Shown here: positions 1 to 29,669 of the stretch, one piece after another
How positions within the stretch are numbered: the first letter of the stretch is position 1
How the letters are laid out: every line of letters starts with the position of its first letter
Notes under the pieces: model-generated
What the model saw: the letters and a program-made list of their open reading frames with translations, nothing else
Database searches by the model: none
Told to the model about the DNA's origin: nothing
Source of the DNA: Naegleria gruberi
Taxonomy: Eukaryota
Assembly (NCBI GenBank): GCA_000004985.1
Contig: GG738884.1
DNA: 64,000 nt
Direction: 5' to 3' (one strand)
Program-made: the position numbers and the translations under genes

Positions 1-577
<577 letters not shown>

Positions 578-657
578 ATATTATATTATATTAAATATTA
601 TTAAATGTTATTATTGTTGTTAATAAATAGACTTTTGTAAAGTTTAAGAATAAAAAA

Positions 658-1533
658 ATGAATGAAGCAAATTGTTCTTGTTGTTTAATAGAATTACCTA
701 ATTATATAGAATGTATTGAAAATGATATTGATAATAATTGGAAACCTTTTAAATTATTAAATTGTTCATGTAACAAACAACATGACAATGATATTAATAA
801 TGATAATATTAATCAATCGGAATTATCTACTTCTACCACTACAGTATCATCAAATAATAATAATGATGATGAAATATATGAATTTAAATTTATTGAAAAT
901 AATATTGAAAGTGAACAAGTTAAACATGAATTAAATCAAAATTATTTAAAAATTAATTGTATTGAAAATTTAAATCAACAATTTAATAATTTTATTATTA
1001 TAAATAATAAATTTGATAAATTAGTATTTAATAATTTAAAACATAATCATTTTCATTTATTAAATTTAAATTTAAATAATTTAAATTTTACAAATTTTAA
1101 ATTTAAAATTAAAAAACAATTATTTACAAATTGGTCATTAATTACATTAAATAAAATACCTAAAAATACATATATAGGAGAATATGTAGGTAAAATAAAT
1201 ATAGAATATTCAAGTACTAGTAATGAATCATTAAATAATTATATTTTTAATTTAAATAATTTTAATAATTTTAATTTAAAAAAATATAAAAAATTTGAAA
1301 TTTGTGGAAAATATTTTGGTAATTTTTCATCATTTATAAATCATTCATGTAATCCAAATTTAGAAATATATTATTGTTATGAAAATAATATAGATATAAG
1401 ATTACCTAAAATATACATTTATAGTAATAAAAATATAAATATAAATGAAGAATTAACATTAAATTATGGAATTAAATATAATTTAAATGAATTTAATTGT
1501 AAATGTAATTCAATTTATTGTAAATTTAAATAA
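658..1533 (+). CDS. SET-domain lysine methyltransferase, extremely Asn/Ile/Lys-rich, 291 aa
   Basis: Single ORF with the SET signature GEYVGKI...FINHSCNPNLEIY...ELTLNYG and a post-SET CKCNSIYCK motif. N-terminal Cys cluster CSCCL...CSCNK. Local GC about 11%. Confidence 0.75.
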   Translation: MNEANCSCCLIELPNYIECIENDIDNNWKPFKLLNCSCNKQHDNDINNDNINQSELSTSTTTVSSNNNNDDEIYEFKFIENNIESEQVKHELNQNYLKINCIENLNQQFNNFIIINNKFDKLVFNNLKHNHFHLLNLNLNNLNFTNFKFKIKKQLFTNWSLITLNKIPKNTYIGEYVGKINIEYSSTSNESLNNYIFNLNNFNNFNLKKYKKFEICGKYFGNFSSFINHSCNPNLEIYYCYENNIDIRLPKIYIYSNKNININEELTLNYGIKYNLNEFNCKCNSIYCKFK

Positions 1534-1915
1534 TATAACTATCACATAAAAGTACAATTACTACTATTTATGTATTATAATACCTATCAACTTCATAAAA
1601 GTAATATTATAATTTAAATTTATTATATTGATTGATCCATAACATAACAAGATGACAATTAAAGATATTGTGTTGAATGAATAATAATCAATTTAATAAT
1701 TATTAAAAAAAATATCTCCTCTACAAGTGAGTGTGTTATTATAATTTTGATCATACATTCCGATACATGATTTATATTATACATCATTATTATTATCATT
1801 ATCCTATATAAATAATAAGAACAATTTATCATCACACAAATATTAGTATAAAACTAATAATAATAATAATCAAAATAATAATATTCAATCATCATCATTA
1901 ATAATAATAATAATA

Positions 1916-3046
1916 ATGAAATCTATAACATCATCTGAAAATAATCAAAATAATCAAATAAAATCATTTACAATAGAATGTAGTGGATATTGTACACATT
2001 CAAATCACATGACAGATTCATCAATATCATATTGTAATAGTCAATCTATTAAATTTCCATCTTTATTTGGAATATTTAAACATACTAAATATGGATATAT
2101 ATTATATGATACTGGTTATTGTAATAGATTTTATAAAGAAACTAGTAATTTACCTTTTTATTTATATGGTAAATTAATACCTGTTTATTTAAATGAAAAT
2201 GAATCTGCAAGTGAAATATTAAATACTAAATATGGTATAAATAATAATGATATTAAATTTATTATCATTTCACATTTTCATGCAGATCATATAAGTGGTT
2301 TAATTGATTTTCCAAATGCTAAATTTATTTATTCTAAAGAAGGTTTTGAATATTTAAATCAATTAAAAAATTCAAATTCAAATATTAAATGTTGTTTAAA
2401 TGGATTTATACCAAATTTATTACCTTTGGATTTTTTAAATAGATCTATTCAATTATCTATAAATGATTTTAAATTTATTAATAATATTCCATTTAAAGTA
2501 TTTGATTTATTTAATGATAATTCTATTTTTATTGTTGATTTACCTGGTCATTGTTTAGGTCATTTTGGTGTTTTTTTTAAATGTAATAATCAAAATTTAT
2601 TACATAATAATACTATTAATAATAATGAAAATATTAATATTGATAGTAATAGTAATAATATGACTAGTAATGAAAATATTAATATTGATAATGAAAAATC
2701 ATATTTACTTATTGGAGATGCAGCATGGTCATTAAGAGCTATAAAATTAAATGCATTACCACATTTGTTAACTAAATATTTTGTTCAACATGATTGGAAT
2801 GCCTATTCAAATACTCTGAATGAATTACATAAAATTTATAATGAATCAAGTTTTCATATTAATAATTTGAAAAAGACAAGAAAAGGTCAAGAACCAATTA
2901 ATCCACAAAAAAAGATTACAAATCATATTAGAATTATACCATCTCATTGTTGGCAAGTTTATGAATCATTTTGTCAACAGCAACAACCACTTGGTAGTGA
3001 TGGTACAACTCCAAGTACCACCACTTCAATAATTTCCAAATTGTAA
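1916..3046 (+). CDS. Metallo-beta-lactamase-fold hydrolase with an Asn-rich insertion
   Basis: ORF contains the HxHxDH motif (ISHFHADHISGL), then PGHCLGH and IGDAAW metal-ligand motifs typical of the MBL superfamily. Confidence 0.7.
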   Translation: MKSITSSENNQNNQIKSFTIECSGYCTHSNHMTDSSISYCNSQSIKFPSLFGIFKHTKYGYILYDTGYCNRFYKETSNLPFYLYGKLIPVYLNENESASEILNTKYGINNNDIKFIIISHFHADHISGLIDFPNAKFIYSKEGFEYLNQLKNSNSNIKCCLNGFIPNLLPLDFLNRSIQLSINDFKFINNIPFKVFDLFNDNSIFIVDLPGHCLGHFGVFFKCNNQNLLHNNTINNNENINIDSNSNNMTSNENINIDNEKSYLLIGDAAWSLRAIKLNALPHLLTKYFVQHDWNAYSNTLNELHKIYNESSFHINNLKKTRKGQEPINPQKKITNHIRIIPSHCWQVYESFCQQQQPLGSDGTTPSTTTSIISKL

Positions 3047-4460: not shown

Positions 4461-5634
4461 TGTTGTTGTTTGTTGTTATTAATTGTTTTGATGATGAAAA
4501 AATACTCTCTCCGGTTTTTAAAGATGAAGAAAAAGAAGAAAAAACACTAGCGGCGCCGGCGAAATGATGACACTAACTGGTGGTGGGAATATTTTTTTCA
4601 AAGGCTTTTTTTGCCTTCCTTCAACAAGGTCTTGAAAAATTTTGGCTTTTTGATTGGGTTTTCATTGGAATTACAATTATCATCAAGTAGTAAAGAAGTT
4701 TTTCAATCAATTAATACTCAAAAGATCTAGTTGATGTTTTTATTATTAGGATATGTTTAGGTTGAGTGGAATGGTGAATTGTTGTATAGATTCAATCAGT
4801 TTAATCTCGAGATAGGAAATTGGATGAAAAGGAAAGCTACCGATTTGGAAATTTAATACGAGAGGAGAAAATCATTCTTCAAGTCTAAAGCATTTTCTAA
4901 TCATCTGGACCAAAACCTTAATAATAGTAATGTGACTATATCACAAGACAACATCCAATGAATAATAAAGAGTTTAGTCTACTCTACAACAGCAGTTTTT
5001 GAAGGAGTAGTGAAAGAAATGTTTCCTTCAACTTGAATCGGATTAAGAGTACAAATAAAACCTAAAGAATCCAATAATATTCATTCTCATTGACAATATA
5101 ATTCATTTCCTTAATACATTTCAAGTCGTACACATTCGGAATATTTTCAATGGAAACTCAAATAACACAAACATTAATTTAACCTCCACTAACTGATTCA
5201 ATAGATTGACTACAGATTCACTCTCATCTACCACCACTCACCTATTTTCACTTTATTAGAAACAAATACTGTATTGGTATGAGCGGTTATTGATGATGCA
5301 ATGAAGATCTTTCTCAACGTTTATTAAACAAAGAGTCTCCTCCCACAAGAGAATGCAGTGAGCGATTGGATCAATATTTCTTCAACGAGACAAAAATAAA
5401 TCACAAAAAAAAGCCTTGTACCATTGTTACAGATATTCTATATTTGAGGAGTGTGTTTTTTAACCTCTTGTTGAGACTGTGTGACGCTCTTTTTAACTAA
5501 CCGATTCAGATCTGAATACATCAATAATAATTGTACTATATATACAGTGTCATCTTTGTAAATAGATTAAAAACTCTAATTGATCAAATATATTTAAGCC
5601 TAACCCAAAGTAAATAATAACAAACTGAAACATT

Positions 5635-6343
5635 ATGACCTCACCAGGAAAGTTTATTGGTTCTCCTACAAAGAGAAGAGAAATGGACATTATGAAATTG
5701 TAAGTTTTTCAATTTGAATCAAATTATTCAATTCCGATGATTAGAATGATGAGTAATTATAAAGTTCAAATGAATGATAATCATGCTGAATTTTTCGTTA
5801 AATTCTATGGACCAAAGGATACTAACTATGAAGGTATGTGTTCATTCTCTTTTTAAACTCTTTAATTGAAACTATTTAATGAAACCATTCAATAACATTA
5901 AACTATTCAATGAAACTCTATGAATAGGAGGTGTATGGAAAGTTAGAGTAACCATTCCAGAGAATTATCCATTTAAATCACCAAGTATTGGATTTGCCAA
6001 TACAATTTATCATCCAAATGTTGATGAATCAAGTGGAAGTGTATTTTAGATGTAATTAATCAAACATGGTCACCAATGTTTGACCTTATTAACATTTTTG
6101 ATGTCTTTTTACCTCAATTACTTGCCTATCCAAATGCACAAGAAAGCAGCTGCATTTCTAATGAGAGATGCTGAAGCTTATAAAAAGAAAGTTAGAGATT
6201 ATGTTGAAAAGTATGCAAAAGAAGAAAATATTAAATTTGAATCTCAGGATGATGATTCAGATGAACAAGATGAAGAACAAGATGCTCTATCAAGTGCTTC
6301 TGAAGGTTTAGATGAAAATGATTTGGCTGAATTTGAATTGTAA
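5635..6343 (+). CDS. UBE2H: Ubiquitin-conjugating enzyme E2 H-type (UBE2H-like). Exons 5635..5699, 5745..5833 and 5928..6343. The last exon has two compensating frame disruptions and no catalytic Cys codon; possible pseudogene or sequence error.
   Basis: [22 protein letters not shown]|[30 protein letters not shown]|[38 protein letters not shown] then a frame slip, [32 protein letters not shown], a second slip, [27 protein letters not shown] plus an acidic tail. Near-collinear with human UBE2H. Introns are GTAAGT..AG (45 nt) and GTATGT..AG (94 nt). Confidence 0.7.
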
Positions 6344-6506
6344 TAATTTGTAAAAATTAATTTGTAAAATATTTATAAAGTTTTAACTTCATGAAAGTTT
6401 GTTTTCATGAAAATGTTACAATAGTTCTATTGTGTATATCAAATAGTCAAAGTATATTACTATTGAAAGTATAGTAAAGTATAATATATTGAAAGAAAAT
6501 GTTAAA

Positions 6507-7481
6507 TTACAAAATTTGACATTTTTTCTTTTGTGGACGATTGACATTATTTTGTGGATTGTCTTTCAATTTTTGTTTCATTGCAATTCCAACAGCCAAA
6601 TCAAAAGCATCTGCTAAATTTTCCATAGTCTTTGCACTACATTCAATATATCCTGATGCTTTAATTCTATCTTTCATTTCATTACCTTGTTCCGAAGTGA
6701 CAGGTTCAATTCTCTTATCTTTAAGTTTTTTAATATATTCTTCATCTTTCTTTAAATCTAATTTTGTACCAACAAGAACAATTGGAGTATCTGGATTGTA
6801 ATGTTTCAATTCTTCTGCCCATTTACTTTGACAATTTTCAAGTGAATTTGGATTTTCTAATGAAAAACAAACAAGAAATACATCAGTACTATTATTATTG
6901 TAATTATATATTTGGATTATAGAATAGATTTGGAAGATTAGAATAGTTATATTAGATTGGAATAGTTGATCGTTATTAGATTATATTAGATTGTTAGAAA
7001 TATAATGATGAATATAATAATAGGTCAATGAAATGATGGAATTTTAAAATAACCTACTCTGGATATGACAATGGTCTCAAACGACTATTAATTGTTATTA
7101 TAATAACAATAACAATAATAATATGTTCATCATGATGAAAATGTGATCAAATGATTATTGTGAAACATATATTCAAACCGTTCCATCATTAACGCTGTTA
7201 ATAATTTCTAAATAACTTACTCATAACTATTAAATATTGATATTATTATTATTAAATATATATTAACAAAGTAGTAAATATAATAAAACATACTCTTCTT
7301 GACCAGCAGTATCATATAAAGCAATACTAACAATACCATCACCATATGAAATATTCTTATTATAATTATCAAAAACTGTAGGAACGTAATCTTCAGGGAA
7401 ACAACCTGATGAATAGGCTATTAACAAGGCTGTTTTACCAACTGCACCATCACCTACAACTACACATTTAATAGATTCCAT
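6507..7481 (-). CDS. Rac/Rho-family small GTPase with a CQIL CAAX box. Three exons 7481..7294, 7084..7058 (27-nt micro-exon) and 6888..6507.
   Basis: [20 protein letters not shown]...YDTAGQED | RLRPLSYP | [46 protein letters not shown]...CSAKT...KKKCQIL. G1-G5 motifs are present. The exon 1 donor is GTATGT and the micro-exon is flanked by AG/GTAGGT. Confidence 0.8.
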
Positions 7482-9494: not shown

Positions 9495-10678
9495 TTATTG
9501 ATTATTCAATTGTTGATTATCCAATTCACGTAGTTGTGAACTACTCAATTTAATGGATTCAGTTGCTGCTTCTGAACGAGGAAGTAAAAGTGGAATGCAA
9601 ACAATTTCATACATTGGGAAATTCTTTTCATTCTTTCTAATTTCATTTCCCTTCTTGGCTCCATTCAATGTTTCATCACTGACAACTAAAACTTCCAATT
9701 GTGGATCAGTTGCAATTGGTCCCCAAGGTTCTGGAAGTGGAAATATCTAATTAAAGTTAGTTCATTAATTTGCAAATAACAATTTTAGAATCATTTCAAA
9801 ATAACATACATTAATTTGAGACATATCCATAGATGGATTAATTTTAGCAATTGATTTCAAAACATTATCTCTTCTCAATTCATAAGATTGAATTAATTCT
9901 TTCAATTTCTTATTCTTCAATAATCCATCAATAGAAACTCCAATTTGAATTTCATGTTTCTTTCCATCATTTTGATTATTTTCTTTATAAAGTAATAGAG
10001 CTTGTGTTAATAAAATTTTATGACCTAAATGTAAACGATCAAATGTTCCACCCAAACAAACAACATTAAATTTTCTATAATTTTCTTCCACAGATGAAAT
10101 TACTTGACTATTATTAAATATTAAATCAAATTCATTTAAAGAATGTGAAATATTACATTCAGGTAATATTTCAATTCTATTTAATACGTTATTTTCACAA
10201 ATTATTTCATTTTGTAAATTTCTTTTAAATTTAATCCATTGATTTTCATTATTATTCAATAATAATACTTTTTCATTATTAATAGTATTGTTATTAATAG
10301 TATTATTATATTGTGGCATTACAACATTAAATTCATATTTATAATAATCATTTACATTGGTTAATATTTCAGAATAATATTCTTTATATAAATGAATCTA
10401 AATCATCATCATCATTAAAATATTTTAATTAATATTCAGTTATTGATGATGATGATTAATAAACATACATTTTTAAAAGTTCCGATATTATTTTCTTGTT
10501 GATCATTAATTAAAATTCTAAAATCAATGAATTGATGATGATTATTGTTAGAGTTCAATTTAATATTTTCATTGAAATATTGCAATGATTGTCTAATTAA
10601 TGAGAGATTGCATAGAAAATCTTTAATGGATTGAATATTTTGTGTTTCAACTTGAATATTTAAACAAGTATTTGACAT
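9495..10678 (-). CDS. Phosphopantetheine adenylyltransferase-like nucleotidyltransferase (PPAT/CoaD-type). Proposed exons 10678..10469, 10397..9810 and 9746..9495.
   Basis: Core exon carries CLGGTFDRLHLGHKILL, the cytidylyltransferase (H/T)xGH motif. The 3' exon is joined through a GTATGT..TTAG intron of 63 nt. An upstream in-frame exon (ORF 10436..10678) joins through a GTATGT..TTTAG intron of 71 nt. Confidence 0.6.
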
Positions 10679-10781
10679 TTTTTTTTAAATTAATAATTTA
10701 AGTTTATTTTGTAATCAATTAATACAAATACTATCAATATATACTATCTATTAATTAAAATATATATTTAATTGAATAAAT

Positions 10782-12521
10782 TTAATCAGCTTTAAGAAAA
10801 TTTCTATCCTTAATTTTTTTATAATAACAATAACCAATAATAATTCCTAATATGGTTAATAAAATGATTGAACCAAAAGGTACAACAAGTCCAATAATTA
10901 AATTAGTATAATCAGTATATTCAGGTGGTTGACGATCTTTAAAATCCAAGAAAAGTCTAATATTATTCATTGAATTTAAACCACTCACTTCACCTAAAAT
11001 AAAACCAATTTCTCCATATAAACGTTCACCTGCAAAAAAATCATTTGGTAAACTTGATGGAATAAATGTTGTGACTTGAATTACTTTTTTACCAACATAT
11101 AATTCACCTTCTTTAAGTGGAACATTAAATCTACCTCTCTGATCTCCCAATCTATTGAAATTATAAAATTTTAGAGTAAAATTTTGTGAAATTGGTTGAT
11201 AGAGTGCAAATTGTGGATTTTCATCTTGACTACTCTTAAAGAAATAGGTAAATTTGTTTCTTATGGAACCAACTGTTGTTTTTTGTCCATTTGAAACAAT
11301 TGTAACTGTTGAATTATTTGTTAAATTTGAATTAATAGTTTTCCAATCTGGATCTTCTGCAAAACTACAATTTAATAGAAATGAAAATGGAACTGCTTCT
11401 GAACTTTTATCCATAACATGACATGGAAAATCACCATCTAAACTAATTCCACCATAATGAATTGGTGGTTTTTGACATTGTGGAATTGGTGTTAACATTG
11501 TACTTTTACAATCAAATTTTCTAACATTTTTACAATAATCACCTGTTTTTTCTAATGGACAAATACATGCATAGTGTATTGTAGTATTGGTATAACATTC
11601 CATTGTTGAGTTAACATCATTAATATACTTTTCATATTGATTAAAACTAACAATTGTTCCATTACAAGTATAATAAGGTGTTTCATATTGAACAAATATA
11701 GATCTCTTATCACAATTATTCTTTGGTTTAGTTGAATTGGTTTCTTGAATTCCTCTCTTTAATTCATTCATTTCAAAATTATCATTATCATAATTATTAT
11801 CATTAATATTATTAATATCATTAATATTATCATATTCATTTGAATTAGTATTCATGATGGTATTTTCATTAATAGAATTTTGAATATTATTCAATACATT
11901 ATTTAATTTTGTAATGAAAATATCAGAATTAGAACCTTCCAAAGTATTTTCTTCAACATAAATCTTTCCAAACAAGTATAAATCTAATGATTTTTGTAAA
12001 CTTTCTGGAATATACTTGTTAAATTTAAATTCACCAGGTGAATCAGGATCTTCAACTTGAATTGCTAATTTTTCTAATAAATGATTTAATAAAGGTTTGT
12101 TGAAATTAGAAAATTCTTGTTTAAATAATGAAAATACATTTGTCCATGATTCAAAAGTATGATCCTGATCAAGAATATAATTTGTTGTTGGATCTTGTTT
12201 CGGATACTTTTCAATTAGCCTTTTAATATGATTCATTCGTTGTTCAATTAATTCTGAAGGTACATCCATCAATTTATTAGTAAATGAATTAATAGATGAT
12301 GGTTTTAGTGGTGTTGTTGTTGTAGTAATGGTGGATAGAGTTGATGATGATGGTAATGATAATGAATTTGTTTCATCACCACTGGATAATATAAAAGAGG
12401 AATGAACAAGAATGGTCAATAATAATGTAATGATTGTTAATGATGATGGCGATGACACTCTTCGTCGTAGTAGTAGTGGTATTGAAGAGTGATGGTGTGA
12501 TGAACCTTTGAATAAATACAT
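10782..12521 (-). CDS. Type I transmembrane glycoprotein with an EGF-like Cys-rich module, many N-glycosylation sequons and a single C-terminal TM helix, 579 aa
   Basis: Signal-peptide-like N-terminus, an Asn-rich linker, a Cys-rich segment (ACICPLEKTGDYCKN...), a C-terminal TM (LIIGLVVPFGSIILLTILGIIIGYCYY) and a short basic tail. Confidence 0.55.
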   Translation of the reverse strand: MYLFKGSSHHHSSIPLLLRRRVSSPSSLTIITLLLTILVHSSFILSSGDETNSLSLPSSSTLSTITTTTTPLKPSSINSFTNKLMDVPSELIEQRMNHIKRLIEKYPKQDPTTNYILDQDHTFESWTNVFSLFKQEFSNFNKPLLNHLLEKLAIQVEDPDSPGEFKFNKYIPESLQKSLDLYLFGKIYVEENTLEGSNSDIFITKLNNVLNNIQNSINENTIMNTNSNEYDNINDINNINDNNYDNDNFEMNELKRGIQETNSTKPKNNCDKRSIFVQYETPYYTCNGTIVSFNQYEKYINDVNSTMECYTNTTIHYACICPLEKTGDYCKNVRKFDCKSTMLTPIPQCQKPPIHYGGISLDGDFPCHVMDKSSEAVPFSFLLNCSFAEDPDWKTINSNLTNNSTVTIVSNGQKTTVGSIRNKFTYFFKSSQDENPQFALYQPISQNFTLKFYNFNRLGDQRGRFNVPLKEGELYVGKKVIQVTTFIPSSLPNDFFAGERLYGEIGFILGEVSGLNSMNNIRLFLDFKDRQPPEYTDYTNLIIGLVVPFGSIILLTILGIIIGYCYYKKIKDRNFLKAD

Positions 12522-15438: not shown

Positions 15439-16563
15439 AATGACTAGGAGAAGAATAACAAGAGGAAGGAATTCAACACCGACCAAACAAGAAATCAATA
15501 CTGATGGTGATGATGACAATATGATACAAACACCAATTGTTACTATTAAAAAGGAAGAATTAACATCTCCAATGGATTTAACTCCAATTCCATCATCATC
15601 ATCATCTGGTAAACAATCAAAATTCTTTAAAACTTCTCCATCCTCTTCAGCTTCATCCTCTCAAGACAATACAAAGAAGGAAGAAGATGAAGATATTGAA
15701 CAAGCAGCTGATAAATTGATTTTATTTAATGAACAATATGAAGCTTTAAAGGAATATAGAAAGAAGAATCTAAATGCACCAGTTGATACGATGGGTTGTT
15801 CAGTTCTAGCTGATTCAAATGCTGATGAAAAAACTCAAAGATTTCAAGTTTTAGTTTCACTCATGTTGAGTTCACAAACTAAGGATCAAATTACAGCAGC
15901 TGCTGTAAGGAAATTACAAGAAAATAATGTTTTATCAGTTGCAGAGATGAACAAATTGTCTGAGAAGGAAATTCAAGATTTAATTTATCCTGTTGGATTT
16001 TACAAAAGAAAGTCAACTTATTTAAAGAAAGTTTGTAAAATATTATTGGAAAAGTATGATAGTGATATTCCTAAAACAGTTAAAGAACTATGTGATTTAC
16101 CAGGTAAGTTTTCTTTGGTTCTCCATTCTCATCTAGTAAACAGGTGTTGGACCTAAAATGGCATATTTATGCATGAGCTCAGCATTGAAACAAACTGTTG
16201 GTATTGGAGTTGATACTCATGTTCATAGAATTAGTAATCGATTGGAATGGGTTAATACTAAAACACCAGAACAAACAAGAATGAAACTGGAAGAATTTGT
16301 ACCACAAGAAGAATGGGATGTTATTAATCACATGTTAGTTGGATTTGGACAAACTGTTTGTAAACCTGTAAGTTTAATTTCTTCATTATATTTCAATATT
16401 TATGAATGTAAAGATTGGTCCAAAATGTAACGAATGTCCACTTAATAAGACATGTGCTTATTTCAAATCAAACAAATCTTCGAAACCATCTCCAAAAAAG
16501 AAGGTTAAAAAACAAGAATACTCATCTGAAGAGGATGAGGAGGAATCAGAAGAAGAACTTTAA
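15439..16563 (+). CDS. NTH1: Endonuclease III homolog (NTH1 base-excision DNA glycosylase). Exons 15439..16103, 16144..16367 and 16414..16563.
   Basis: HhH-GPD motif LPGVGPKMA spans the first intron (GTAAGT..AG, 40 nt). The Fe-S cluster motif CKP|[14 protein letters not shown] spans the second intron (GTAAGT..AG, 46 nt). It has a basic, N-terminal targeting-like extension and an acidic C-terminal tail. Confidence 0.85.
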
Positions 16564-28676: not shown

Positions 28677-29669
28677 TTAATGTAATTCATTGTTAATATC
28701 GAAATATGGAAGTAATTGATCCCTATCTTCAGATTTGACTTTTGACTTAATAAACAAAATACCATCACTAAGTATCTTTTTTGCTTCTGAAACAAATGAA
28801 TAGGTTGTAATTGGATACTTGGCTAATTCTTTAAGGAATAGAGCTGTCTTTTCCATCAAATCCAACCTAGAAATATCATTAATGACTTTAAGAACAAAGT
28901 TCTTCAAGCTATCGTCTTGTCTTGTCCAGCAATATTCGATTTCTTCTCCTATTACTGAAATTCCATGATCTGCAATCATTACGTTTAAAAGTGAAAACAT
29001 AAATTTGCTTAATACTTGTTCATCTTGCTCGGTATGCATTATTTTTGTAATCTTTCCTATAATATGTCTATCATTGAATTGTTTCAACGTGTTTGGTTGA
29101 TTAGAACTGAGTGCAGCTAGAGAAGAACCAACTTTCTTTAAAATTGCCTTTCCTTTAGAACTTGGATTATCCAAAATATCTGCCAAATAATTAAAGAATT
29201 TAACTTGATAGAGGTCATCAGTTTGAATGGCTGGATTATTATGAAGGCAGGTGCAAAGTATTTGAAGAGAAGCCAACTTAATTTCAATTTCATCAGCTCT
29301 TTCATCTTGACTCTCCGAAGAAAGGAAATGGTCAAAGATATATTCAGTTCCTTTCATTTTGTGGAAATCAGTAGCAAAGTCAATTTTTCCAACAATTTCA
29401 TCAATTTGATCCATAGCATCTAGAGTATCATCAACTGATGAAGATTCATCTCTAATAACAGCCAATGCCTTTTTAATGACAGTATATGGATCACTTCCTT
29501 TCATTTGAGAAGCAATATATTCCAAAATTTCCCTTTTTTCTGGTGTTAATTCTTGTGGATTTCCTGTTGAATCTGCTGCTTGTCTTCTCAACTCTTCGGA
29601 AGATGAATTGGCAACAGCCCAATTAAATAATTCTTTTAAAGGATCACCTCCTCCTCCTTGTGGATTCAT
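28677..29669 (-). CDS. Hsp70 nucleotide-exchange factor of the Fes1/HspBP1 family (armadillo repeats)
   Basis: N-terminal LKELFNWAVANSS resembles the Fes1 N-motif (LLHWSIANS). The remainder is ARM-like. Confidence 0.6.
   Translation of the reverse strand: MNPQGGGGDPLKELFNWAVANSSSEELRRQAADSTGNPQELTPEKREILEYIASQMKGSDPYTVIKKALAVIRDESSSVDDTLDAMDQIDEIVGKIDFATDFHKMKGTEYIFDHFLSSESQDERADEIEIKLASLQILCTCLHNNPAIQTDDLYQVKFFNYLADILDNPSSKGKAILKKVGSSLAALSSNQPNTLKQFNDRHIIGKITKIMHTEQDEQVLSKFMFSLLNVMIADHGISVIGEEIEYCWTRQDDSLKNFVLKVINDISRLDLMEKTALFLKELAKYPITTYSFVSEAKKILSDGILFIKSKVKSEDRDQLLPYFDINNELH

Follow-up and report, generated by a model that had tools for sequence, protein, structure and literature searches.

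A probably recently inactivated UBE2H/Ubc8 gene copy in the sequenced haplotype of Naegleria gruberi NEG-M

What is to be made of a gene for a UBE2H-type ubiquitin-conjugating enzyme (E2) whose reading frame breaks at the very codon for the catalytic cysteine and then returns for the C-terminal tail? The question is raised by a three-exon gene in the genome of Naegleria gruberi strain NEG-M, which we studied in a window of 64,000 nucleotides, by which we mean the whole stretch of DNA that was analysed. The window is AT-rich (about 30% GC) and its introns are short, running from GTAAGT or GTATGT to TAG. Direct reading places an in-frame TGA upstream of the start codon of the gene; the spliced translation opens MTSPGKF and, in a three-frame translation, the exon 3 frame runs from 5930 as GVWKVRV... 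(Table 1). Exon 1 is identical in the closely related copy described below, and the N-terminus that it encodes agrees with those of the N. fowleri orthologue (P0003) and of other heterolobosean orthologues. The first intron can be regarded as genuine since its excision yields a product that is collinear with the orthologues.

The family to which the gene belongs is indicated by several lines of evidence. Once repaired, its product is recognized by the Pfam UQ_con model (8.5e-34), and the best match among solved structures is human UBE2H (2z5d, E=7.6e-56), with 8pjn and the yeast Ubc8 structure 8pmq also matching; exons 1 and 2 are collinear with UBE2H, and the first-pass annotation was right to call this a UBE2H-type gene. 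By its sequence, we regard the gene at 5635-6343 as the UBE2H/Ubc8 orthologue of N. gruberi NEG-M. It shares with that family the HPN motif, which is present in the start-codon frame upstream of the active site, and, after repair, the active-site context and PNxxDPLN loop. A further shared trait is the acidic extension at the C-terminus, which closes with an EL motif (...DLAEFEL), sits 3' of the second lesion and aligns with the tails of the orthologues. The gene differs from UBE2H and Ubc8 in that its ORF is interrupted: the Cys codon is short of its G, a stop stands at codon 92 and 14 nucleotides of the loop are gone.

Table 1. Features of the UBE2H/Ubc8 gene of N. gruberi NEG-M, in coordinates of the window. 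L001 is the intact metagenome contig described in the text.
Feature	Position	Strand	Description
Exon 1	5635-5699	+	ATG at 5635, last codon split; UBE2H/Ubc8 orthologue
Intron 1	5700-5744	+	45 nt, GTAAGT...TAG; genuine
Exon 2	5745-5833	+	From splice mapping and orthologue alignment
Intron 2	5834-5927	+	94 nt, GTATGT...TAG; genuine; 12 nt below the length in L001
Exon 3	5928-6343	+	Last exon, holds both lesions; stop codon 6341-6343
Artefactual "intron" of the deposited model	6020-6039	+	20 nt, GTTGAT...GGAAG; takes out VDESSGS(V)
Lesion 1	6043-6045	+	G of Cys TGT absent between t6044 and t6045; alignment with L001
Displaced conserved segment	6046-6141	+	32 codons in the neighbouring frame; identical to the L001 protein
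Premature TAG	6047-6049	+	Codon 92, created by lesion 1
Artefactual "intron" of the deposited model	6103-6142	+	40 nt, GTCTTT...ACAAG; takes out 13 conserved residues
Lesion 2	6143-6144	+	14 nt (TCCATTAAATTCAG) absent between a6143 and a6144; compared with L001
Original frame resumed	6146-6343	+	C-terminal part with acidic tail ...DLAEFEL; stop 6341-6343
Intact-allele strings, lesions 1 and 2	6000-6200 region	+	GT(A/T)TGTTTAGAT; CAAGATCCATTAAATTCAGAAGCA
Lesion 1 site, alternative allele strings	6000-6200 region	+	GTGTATTTTAGATG vs GTGT(A/T)TGTTTAGATG
Lesion 2 site, alternative allele strings	6000-6200 region	+	CACAAGAAAGCAGC vs CACAAGATCCATTAAATTCAGAAGCAGC
Sequence signature of a dead-E2 variant	6000-6200 region	+	GTATTTTTAGAT plus an in-frame 15-nt deletion

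The nature of the two breaks emerges from comparison with an intact, nearly identical gene on a 1119-bp contig of a metagenome assembly (ENA contig k127_596705; ERZ929261, ERR1078381, PRJEB11402), hereafter L001. Over about 1.07 kb (window 5627-6700) the two sequences differ by eight substitutions and four indels, that is, they are about 99% identical at the DNA level, and L001 encodes a complete E2 of 194 residues, with the TGT and the 14 extra nucleotides in place. The protein derived from it (P0005) was the second-best specific match in our protein search. The source of L001 may be another strain, a sibling species or another haplotype relative to NEG-M; we found no paper on the metagenome project PRJEB11402, its run or the protein accessions. 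Against this intact relative, the frame-disrupting lesions of the window are a deletion of one nucleotide and a deletion of 14.

At the first lesion, the window has GTGTAT-TTTAGA where L001 has GTGTTTGTTTAGA, or, in a longer view, GGAAGTGTAT-TTTAGATG against GGAAGTGTTTGTTTAGATG (G S V C L D), so that the codons GTT TGT TTA GAT of L001 face GTA T-T TTA; the adjoining A6043, which is a T in L001, is a synonymous difference in a Val codon (GTT/GTA). The first-pass annotation had read gta ttt tag here and noted the loss of the active-site Cys codon, both of which are seen in the window, with TGT at this place in L001; it had, though, attributed the break to a change in the length of a T-run, in place of which we find the G of TGT lost between t6044 and t6045, and had counted 31 displaced codons where there are 32. 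The start frame holds no in-frame catalytic Cys codon and reads F followed by the stop, with a second stop, TAA, at 6053-6055. In the shifted frame, a TGT at 6040-6042 reads K-C-I-L-D-V, one residue out of register with the VCLDV of the orthologues. The engineered C-to-K site of the solved structure 8pjn coincides with the position of the lost Cys, which identifies the latter as the catalytic residue.

At the second lesion, the window reads CACAAGA directly followed by AAGCAGCT, against CACAAGATCCATTAAATTCAGAAGCAGCT in L001 (A Q D P L N S E A A), where the codons run ...CAA GAT CCA TTA AAT TCA GAA GCA.... The deletion removes part of D-P-L-N-S-E and is blunt, without flanking microhomology. 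What had been described as a one-base slip inside gaaagc is instead, to judge from the 99%-identical L001, this 14-nt deletion; the accompanying observations that exon 3 carries two compensating frame breaks, both of which can be read directly, and that the conserved loop is shortened, the 14 nucleotides having encoded part of it, stand. With stops at 6047 and 6053 and the 14-nt deletion between 6143 and 6144, no open frame spans helices 2-4 and the PNxxDPLN loop. The original frame returns because the two lesions together take out 15 nt, a sum that would restore the frame by chance in about 1 in 3 cases, and that would also look like an in-frame variant read with errors.

The comparison with L001 also bears on the age of the lesions. 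As L001 carries GTT TGT TTA GAT and intact DPLN codons, the ancestral state was a normal active E2. When the 15 nt are re-inserted, the CDS of the window encodes the exact 194-residue protein of L001, and the coding differences that remain are three synonymous ones (codons 90, 121 and 164) and no nonsynonymous one, for which the crude neutral probability is 0.007 (111 synonymous and 471 nonsynonymous sites). Two points follow: the inactivation must have been very recent and, if the lesions are real, the gene was under purifying selection until very recently. Relaxed selection, in the form of accumulated nonsynonymous change, is not seen, which leaves either an inactivation of very recent date or an artefact. 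L001 shares both intron positions and the Rac-like gene downstream, from which it follows that the gene at 5635-6343 is not a retrocopy. The four indels relative to L001, at 5864, 6044, 6143 and 6475, measure 12, 1, 14 and 2 nt, the first being a repeat unit in intron 2 and the last falling in the 3' intergenic region; all four are deletions in the window, a pattern that may be due to chance (about 1 in 8), to a tendency of the NEG-M lineage to lose sequence or to a bias of the assembly.

With regard to the neighborhood itself, the Rho/Rac-like small GTPase gene lies on the minus strand at 6507-7481 (Pfam Ras, 9.9e-42). Its three predicted exons, at 7481-7294, 7084-7058 and 6888-6507, are separated by introns of 209 and 169 nt, and the product of the predicted splice model is without the 'YD' of the usual motif. 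A match to the C/D-box snoRNA family RF00309 at 5737-5829 on the plus strand, which covers the 3' end of intron 1 and extends through exon 2, is almost certainly due to chance (22.2 bits against a gathering threshold of 41, E=0.83). The first 2 kb of the window (1-2000) have a GC content of 17.7%, as opposed to 26-35% in the later 2-kb blocks with the exception of 10001-12000 (22.0%), and hold two listed ORFs of 291 and 376 residues.

Could the gene nonetheless specify a protein that has dispensed with catalysis? The first-pass annotation had offered such a reading, in which the true sequence has five T's and two A's where the window as written has T4 (6044-6047) and A3 (6143-6145), and the product is an in-frame, UEV-like dead E2 in which Phe replaces the catalytic Cys and five residues of the loop are missing. 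That the two lesions add up to a multiple of three, and that the tail at the C-terminus is unbroken and read in frame, would sit well with it. However, it requires two real mutations together with two separate sequencing errors, stops stand at 6047 and 6053 in the sequence as written, and nothing points to a shift in selection, for instance by additional amino-acid substitutions. Moreover, the 99%-identical L001 is by its sequence a canonical active E2, and derives the window from a normal E2 by the deletion of the G and of the 14 nt; read in this way, neither lesion is a change in homopolymer length. Nor does any relative lack the Cys or the DPLN motif: among 37 relatives, comprising L001 and 36 loci that a degenerate DNA scan recovered in JGI metagenomes (none of these 36 being more than 80% identical to the window), the motif SG[ST][VI]CLDVINQTW with its Cys is kept in 37/37, and YPNxxDPLN in every one whose sequence extends that far. 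In an alignment, the orthologues of N. fowleri, Willaertia magna and Acrasis kona also keep both motifs. The sole resemblance to UEVs of the Mms2, Uev1a and TSG101 type is the lack of a Cys codon in frame; in UEVs the ORF is unbroken and conserved, and orthologues share the absence of Cys, whereas here the ORF is broken and all relatives, the 99%-identical L001 among them, keep the Cys. We accordingly hold a dead E2 to be very improbable.

Other searches speak to copy number. In the protein search with exon 3, only the L001-derived protein was close, the next match being that of N. fowleri at 81%. A second intact UBE2H paralog, for which the first-pass annotation had suggested a search, was found neither within the 64-kb window (tblastn with the intact UBE2H protein) nor, in the form of another N. 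gruberi UBE2H-type protein, among the top matches of two protein searches. The sole other tblastn match in the window, at 28734-28916 on the minus strand, is not significant (32% identity over 63 residues, E=0.39).

A different way of saving the full-length protein would be programmed recoding, with a -1 shift near GUA UUU UAG and a +1 shift near CAA GAA AGC. This would explain why the shifted segment is fully conserved coding sequence and why the frame returns thereafter. However, there is no slippery heptamer of the X XXY YYZ form at 6041-6049 and no Rfam element, the RNA fold downstream is unexceptional (z = -1.47; 17/200 shuffles as good), and L001 and all relatives are in frame without a frameshift; what is more, the product would still be without the catalytic Cys and the DPLN motif. 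The probability that we attach to recoding is close to nil.

The gene is not new to the databases, and its deposited form needs to be accounted for. The top specific match in the protein search is a 169-residue 'ubiquitin-conjugating enzyme' of N. gruberi strain NEG-M, encoded on a 363-kb scaffold (XP_002674333.1, EFC41589.1, D2VN46; our P0002), which a script showed to be the exact translation of the window minus 5700-5744, 5834-5927, 6020-6039 and 6103-6142, an agreement that marks the window as NEG-M reference sequence. The first two of these segments are the introns of Table 1; the other two are placed exactly over the two frame breaks, and the Cys codon of the model is the shifted-frame TGT at 6040-6042. 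Were this model right, the two extra segments would be true tiny introns and the 169-residue protein would be made; both are indeed bounded by GT...AG, and the resulting ORF is open and still recognized as UQ_con (1.3e-21). Yet they encode conserved core residues in register with the orthologues, the counterparts in L001 are 20 and 54 nt long and their removal there breaks the frame, 20 nt is less than half of the shortest genuine intron mapped (45, 94, 209 and 169 nt), and their 5' ends, GTTGAT and GTCTTT, depart from the GTA[ATG]GT of the four genuine introns. The model is without 25 conserved core residues that all orthologues keep, seven before the Cys and 18 after LINIFD; on the standard UBC fold these would form the loop at the active site, a large part of helix 2 and the loop that comes after it. 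Such a pair of tiny introns being functional strikes us as extremely improbable. Homology-based gene modellers commonly bridge frameshifts with mini-introns, and the signature here, two additional stretches of 20 and 40 nt, each GT..AG, that cover the breaks, is that of such workarounds, without difference. Since its two extra introns cut out conserved core residues, XP_002674333.1 is a gene-modelling artefact that bridges both lesions with two fake mini-introns.

The underlying sequence might itself be at fault. Under an artefact of assembly, base-calling or cloning, arising for example from one aberrant clone or from haplotypes merged in error, the gene would be intact in the DNA of NEG-M and the deletions would be confined to the deposited consensus. 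In a search for independent NEG-M sequence by exact look-up, neither nine predicted products, both frameshifted and intact, nor four neighboring or other ORFs of the window gave a match, so that the lesions rest on a single consensus sequence. A protein search with the 80-residue, frameshift-specific C-terminal ORF returned one fragment from an unrelated species and missed both the deposited protein and that of L001, with which the ORF shares 66 identical residues; as these known identical proteins were missed, negatives from its index carry little weight. The artefact would also be in keeping with the crowding of two lesions and one substitution within 100 bp, which could reflect one poor or rearranged clone, with the want of any other decay in the gene (no nonsynonymous change), and with the direction of the indels, 4/4 being deletions in the window. 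On the other hand, a 14-nt deletion and a G lost among T's are not typical of base-calling or homopolymer errors, and between the lesions and in their flanks the window departs from L001 by no more than ordinary-looking polymorphisms: the 99 nt between the two lesions show one synonymous difference, which makes the local sequence quality look normal. There is no N and no gap in the 64 kb, and the NEG-M assembly reportedly has multi-fold Sanger coverage. Weighing these points, we consider an artefact unlikely, albeit the most serious of the alternatives to a genuine lesion.

A codon-usage Viterbi scan for frame switches across the window was too noisy to be of use, with coding on both strands and the known case missed; the junctions that it flagged resemble ordinary short introns. 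This holds for the HhH-GPD/endonuclease III-like base-excision repair gene at about 15458-16560 on the plus strand (Pfam HhH-GPD, 2.1e-25), which has apparent short introns of roughly 40-60 nt and in which the flagged switches look like ordinary splicing.

Thus, the explanation that we favor, and deem likely, is that the locus is a recently inactivated, unprocessed copy of the UBE2H gene in the sequenced haplotype of NEG-M. Of the outcomes that the first-pass annotation had left side by side, the intact L001 and the nature of the lesions favor its branch of a recent pseudogene or an assembly error, and we infer that the lesions are present in the DNA of NEG-M, beyond the assembly alone. The effects would unfold as follows. 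First, the deletion of the G would destroy the catalytic Cys codon and shift the frame. Second, translation from the normal ATG would end at the TAG at 6047 after 91 residues, giving a product that has helix 1 at its N-terminus, the beta-sheet and HPN and that is without the thioester Cys and helices 2-4; judged by the fold known for UBC domains and by alignment with solved UBE2H, such a product could not be charged with ubiquitin or carry it. Third, the 14-nt deletion would cut the PNxxDPLN loop and happen to restore the frame for the acidic tail; the TAG lies in the last exon, and a product of read-through or re-initiation would still be without the Cys and five loop residues. In keeping the ancestral locus, both introns and the same downstream neighbor, and in showing frame-breaking deletions and a premature stop, the gene resembles a unitary pseudogene or null allele. 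It differs from the usual unitary pseudogene in being extremely young, without amino-acid substitutions outside the lesions, and in that it may be one of at least two alleles, or strain-specific. N. gruberi has been reported to be heterozygous (PMC9928731), so that one haplotype may carry the null allele; this background, like the long axenic culture of NEG-M described below, speaks for a real allele. In kind, then, the case is an ordinary one: what a known and annotated gene presents here is a null allele or pseudogene of very recent origin or, with lower probability, an error of sequence, and neither a new type of enzyme nor a new mechanism is involved.

Finally, the setting in which such a loss would be felt can be outlined. 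Ube2H is the cognate E2 with which the GID/CTLH E3 ligase works (PMC6037477), and N. gruberi possesses the partner subunits TWA1, RanBPM, MAEA and Rmnd5 (PMC3797097). Given this role of UBE2H, homozygous loss would deprive the GID/CTLH ligase of its usual E2. The strain NEG-M has for decades been grown axenically in rich medium (PMC6205838). One may imagine that the deletions are real, homozygous in NEG-M and absent from its bacteria-fed parents, the sole CTLH E2 having been lost in axenic, rich, glucose-containing medium, a scenario that we regard as decidedly improbable. Loss of NF1 contributes to axenic growth in axenic Dictyostelium; if a laboratory loss proved true here, the loss of UBE2H might likewise contribute to axenic growth, and NEG-M would be a natural UBE2H knockout for the study of GID/CTLH in a deep-branching eukaryote. 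At the level of the databases, the reference protein XP_002674333.1/D2VN46 sits in UniRef and EukProt, which are sources for comparative studies, and the value of the present result in this regard is mainly one of curation. For the organism, if the lesions are real, NEG-M, the standard laboratory strain of Naegleria, may lack a working UBE2H, the E2 dedicated to the conserved GID/CTLH ligase. This would affect inference on ubiquitin-dependent metabolic regulation drawn from the strain, and the locus would offer a concrete case of gene loss, or of a null allele in the heterozygous state, in a protist long in axenic culture.
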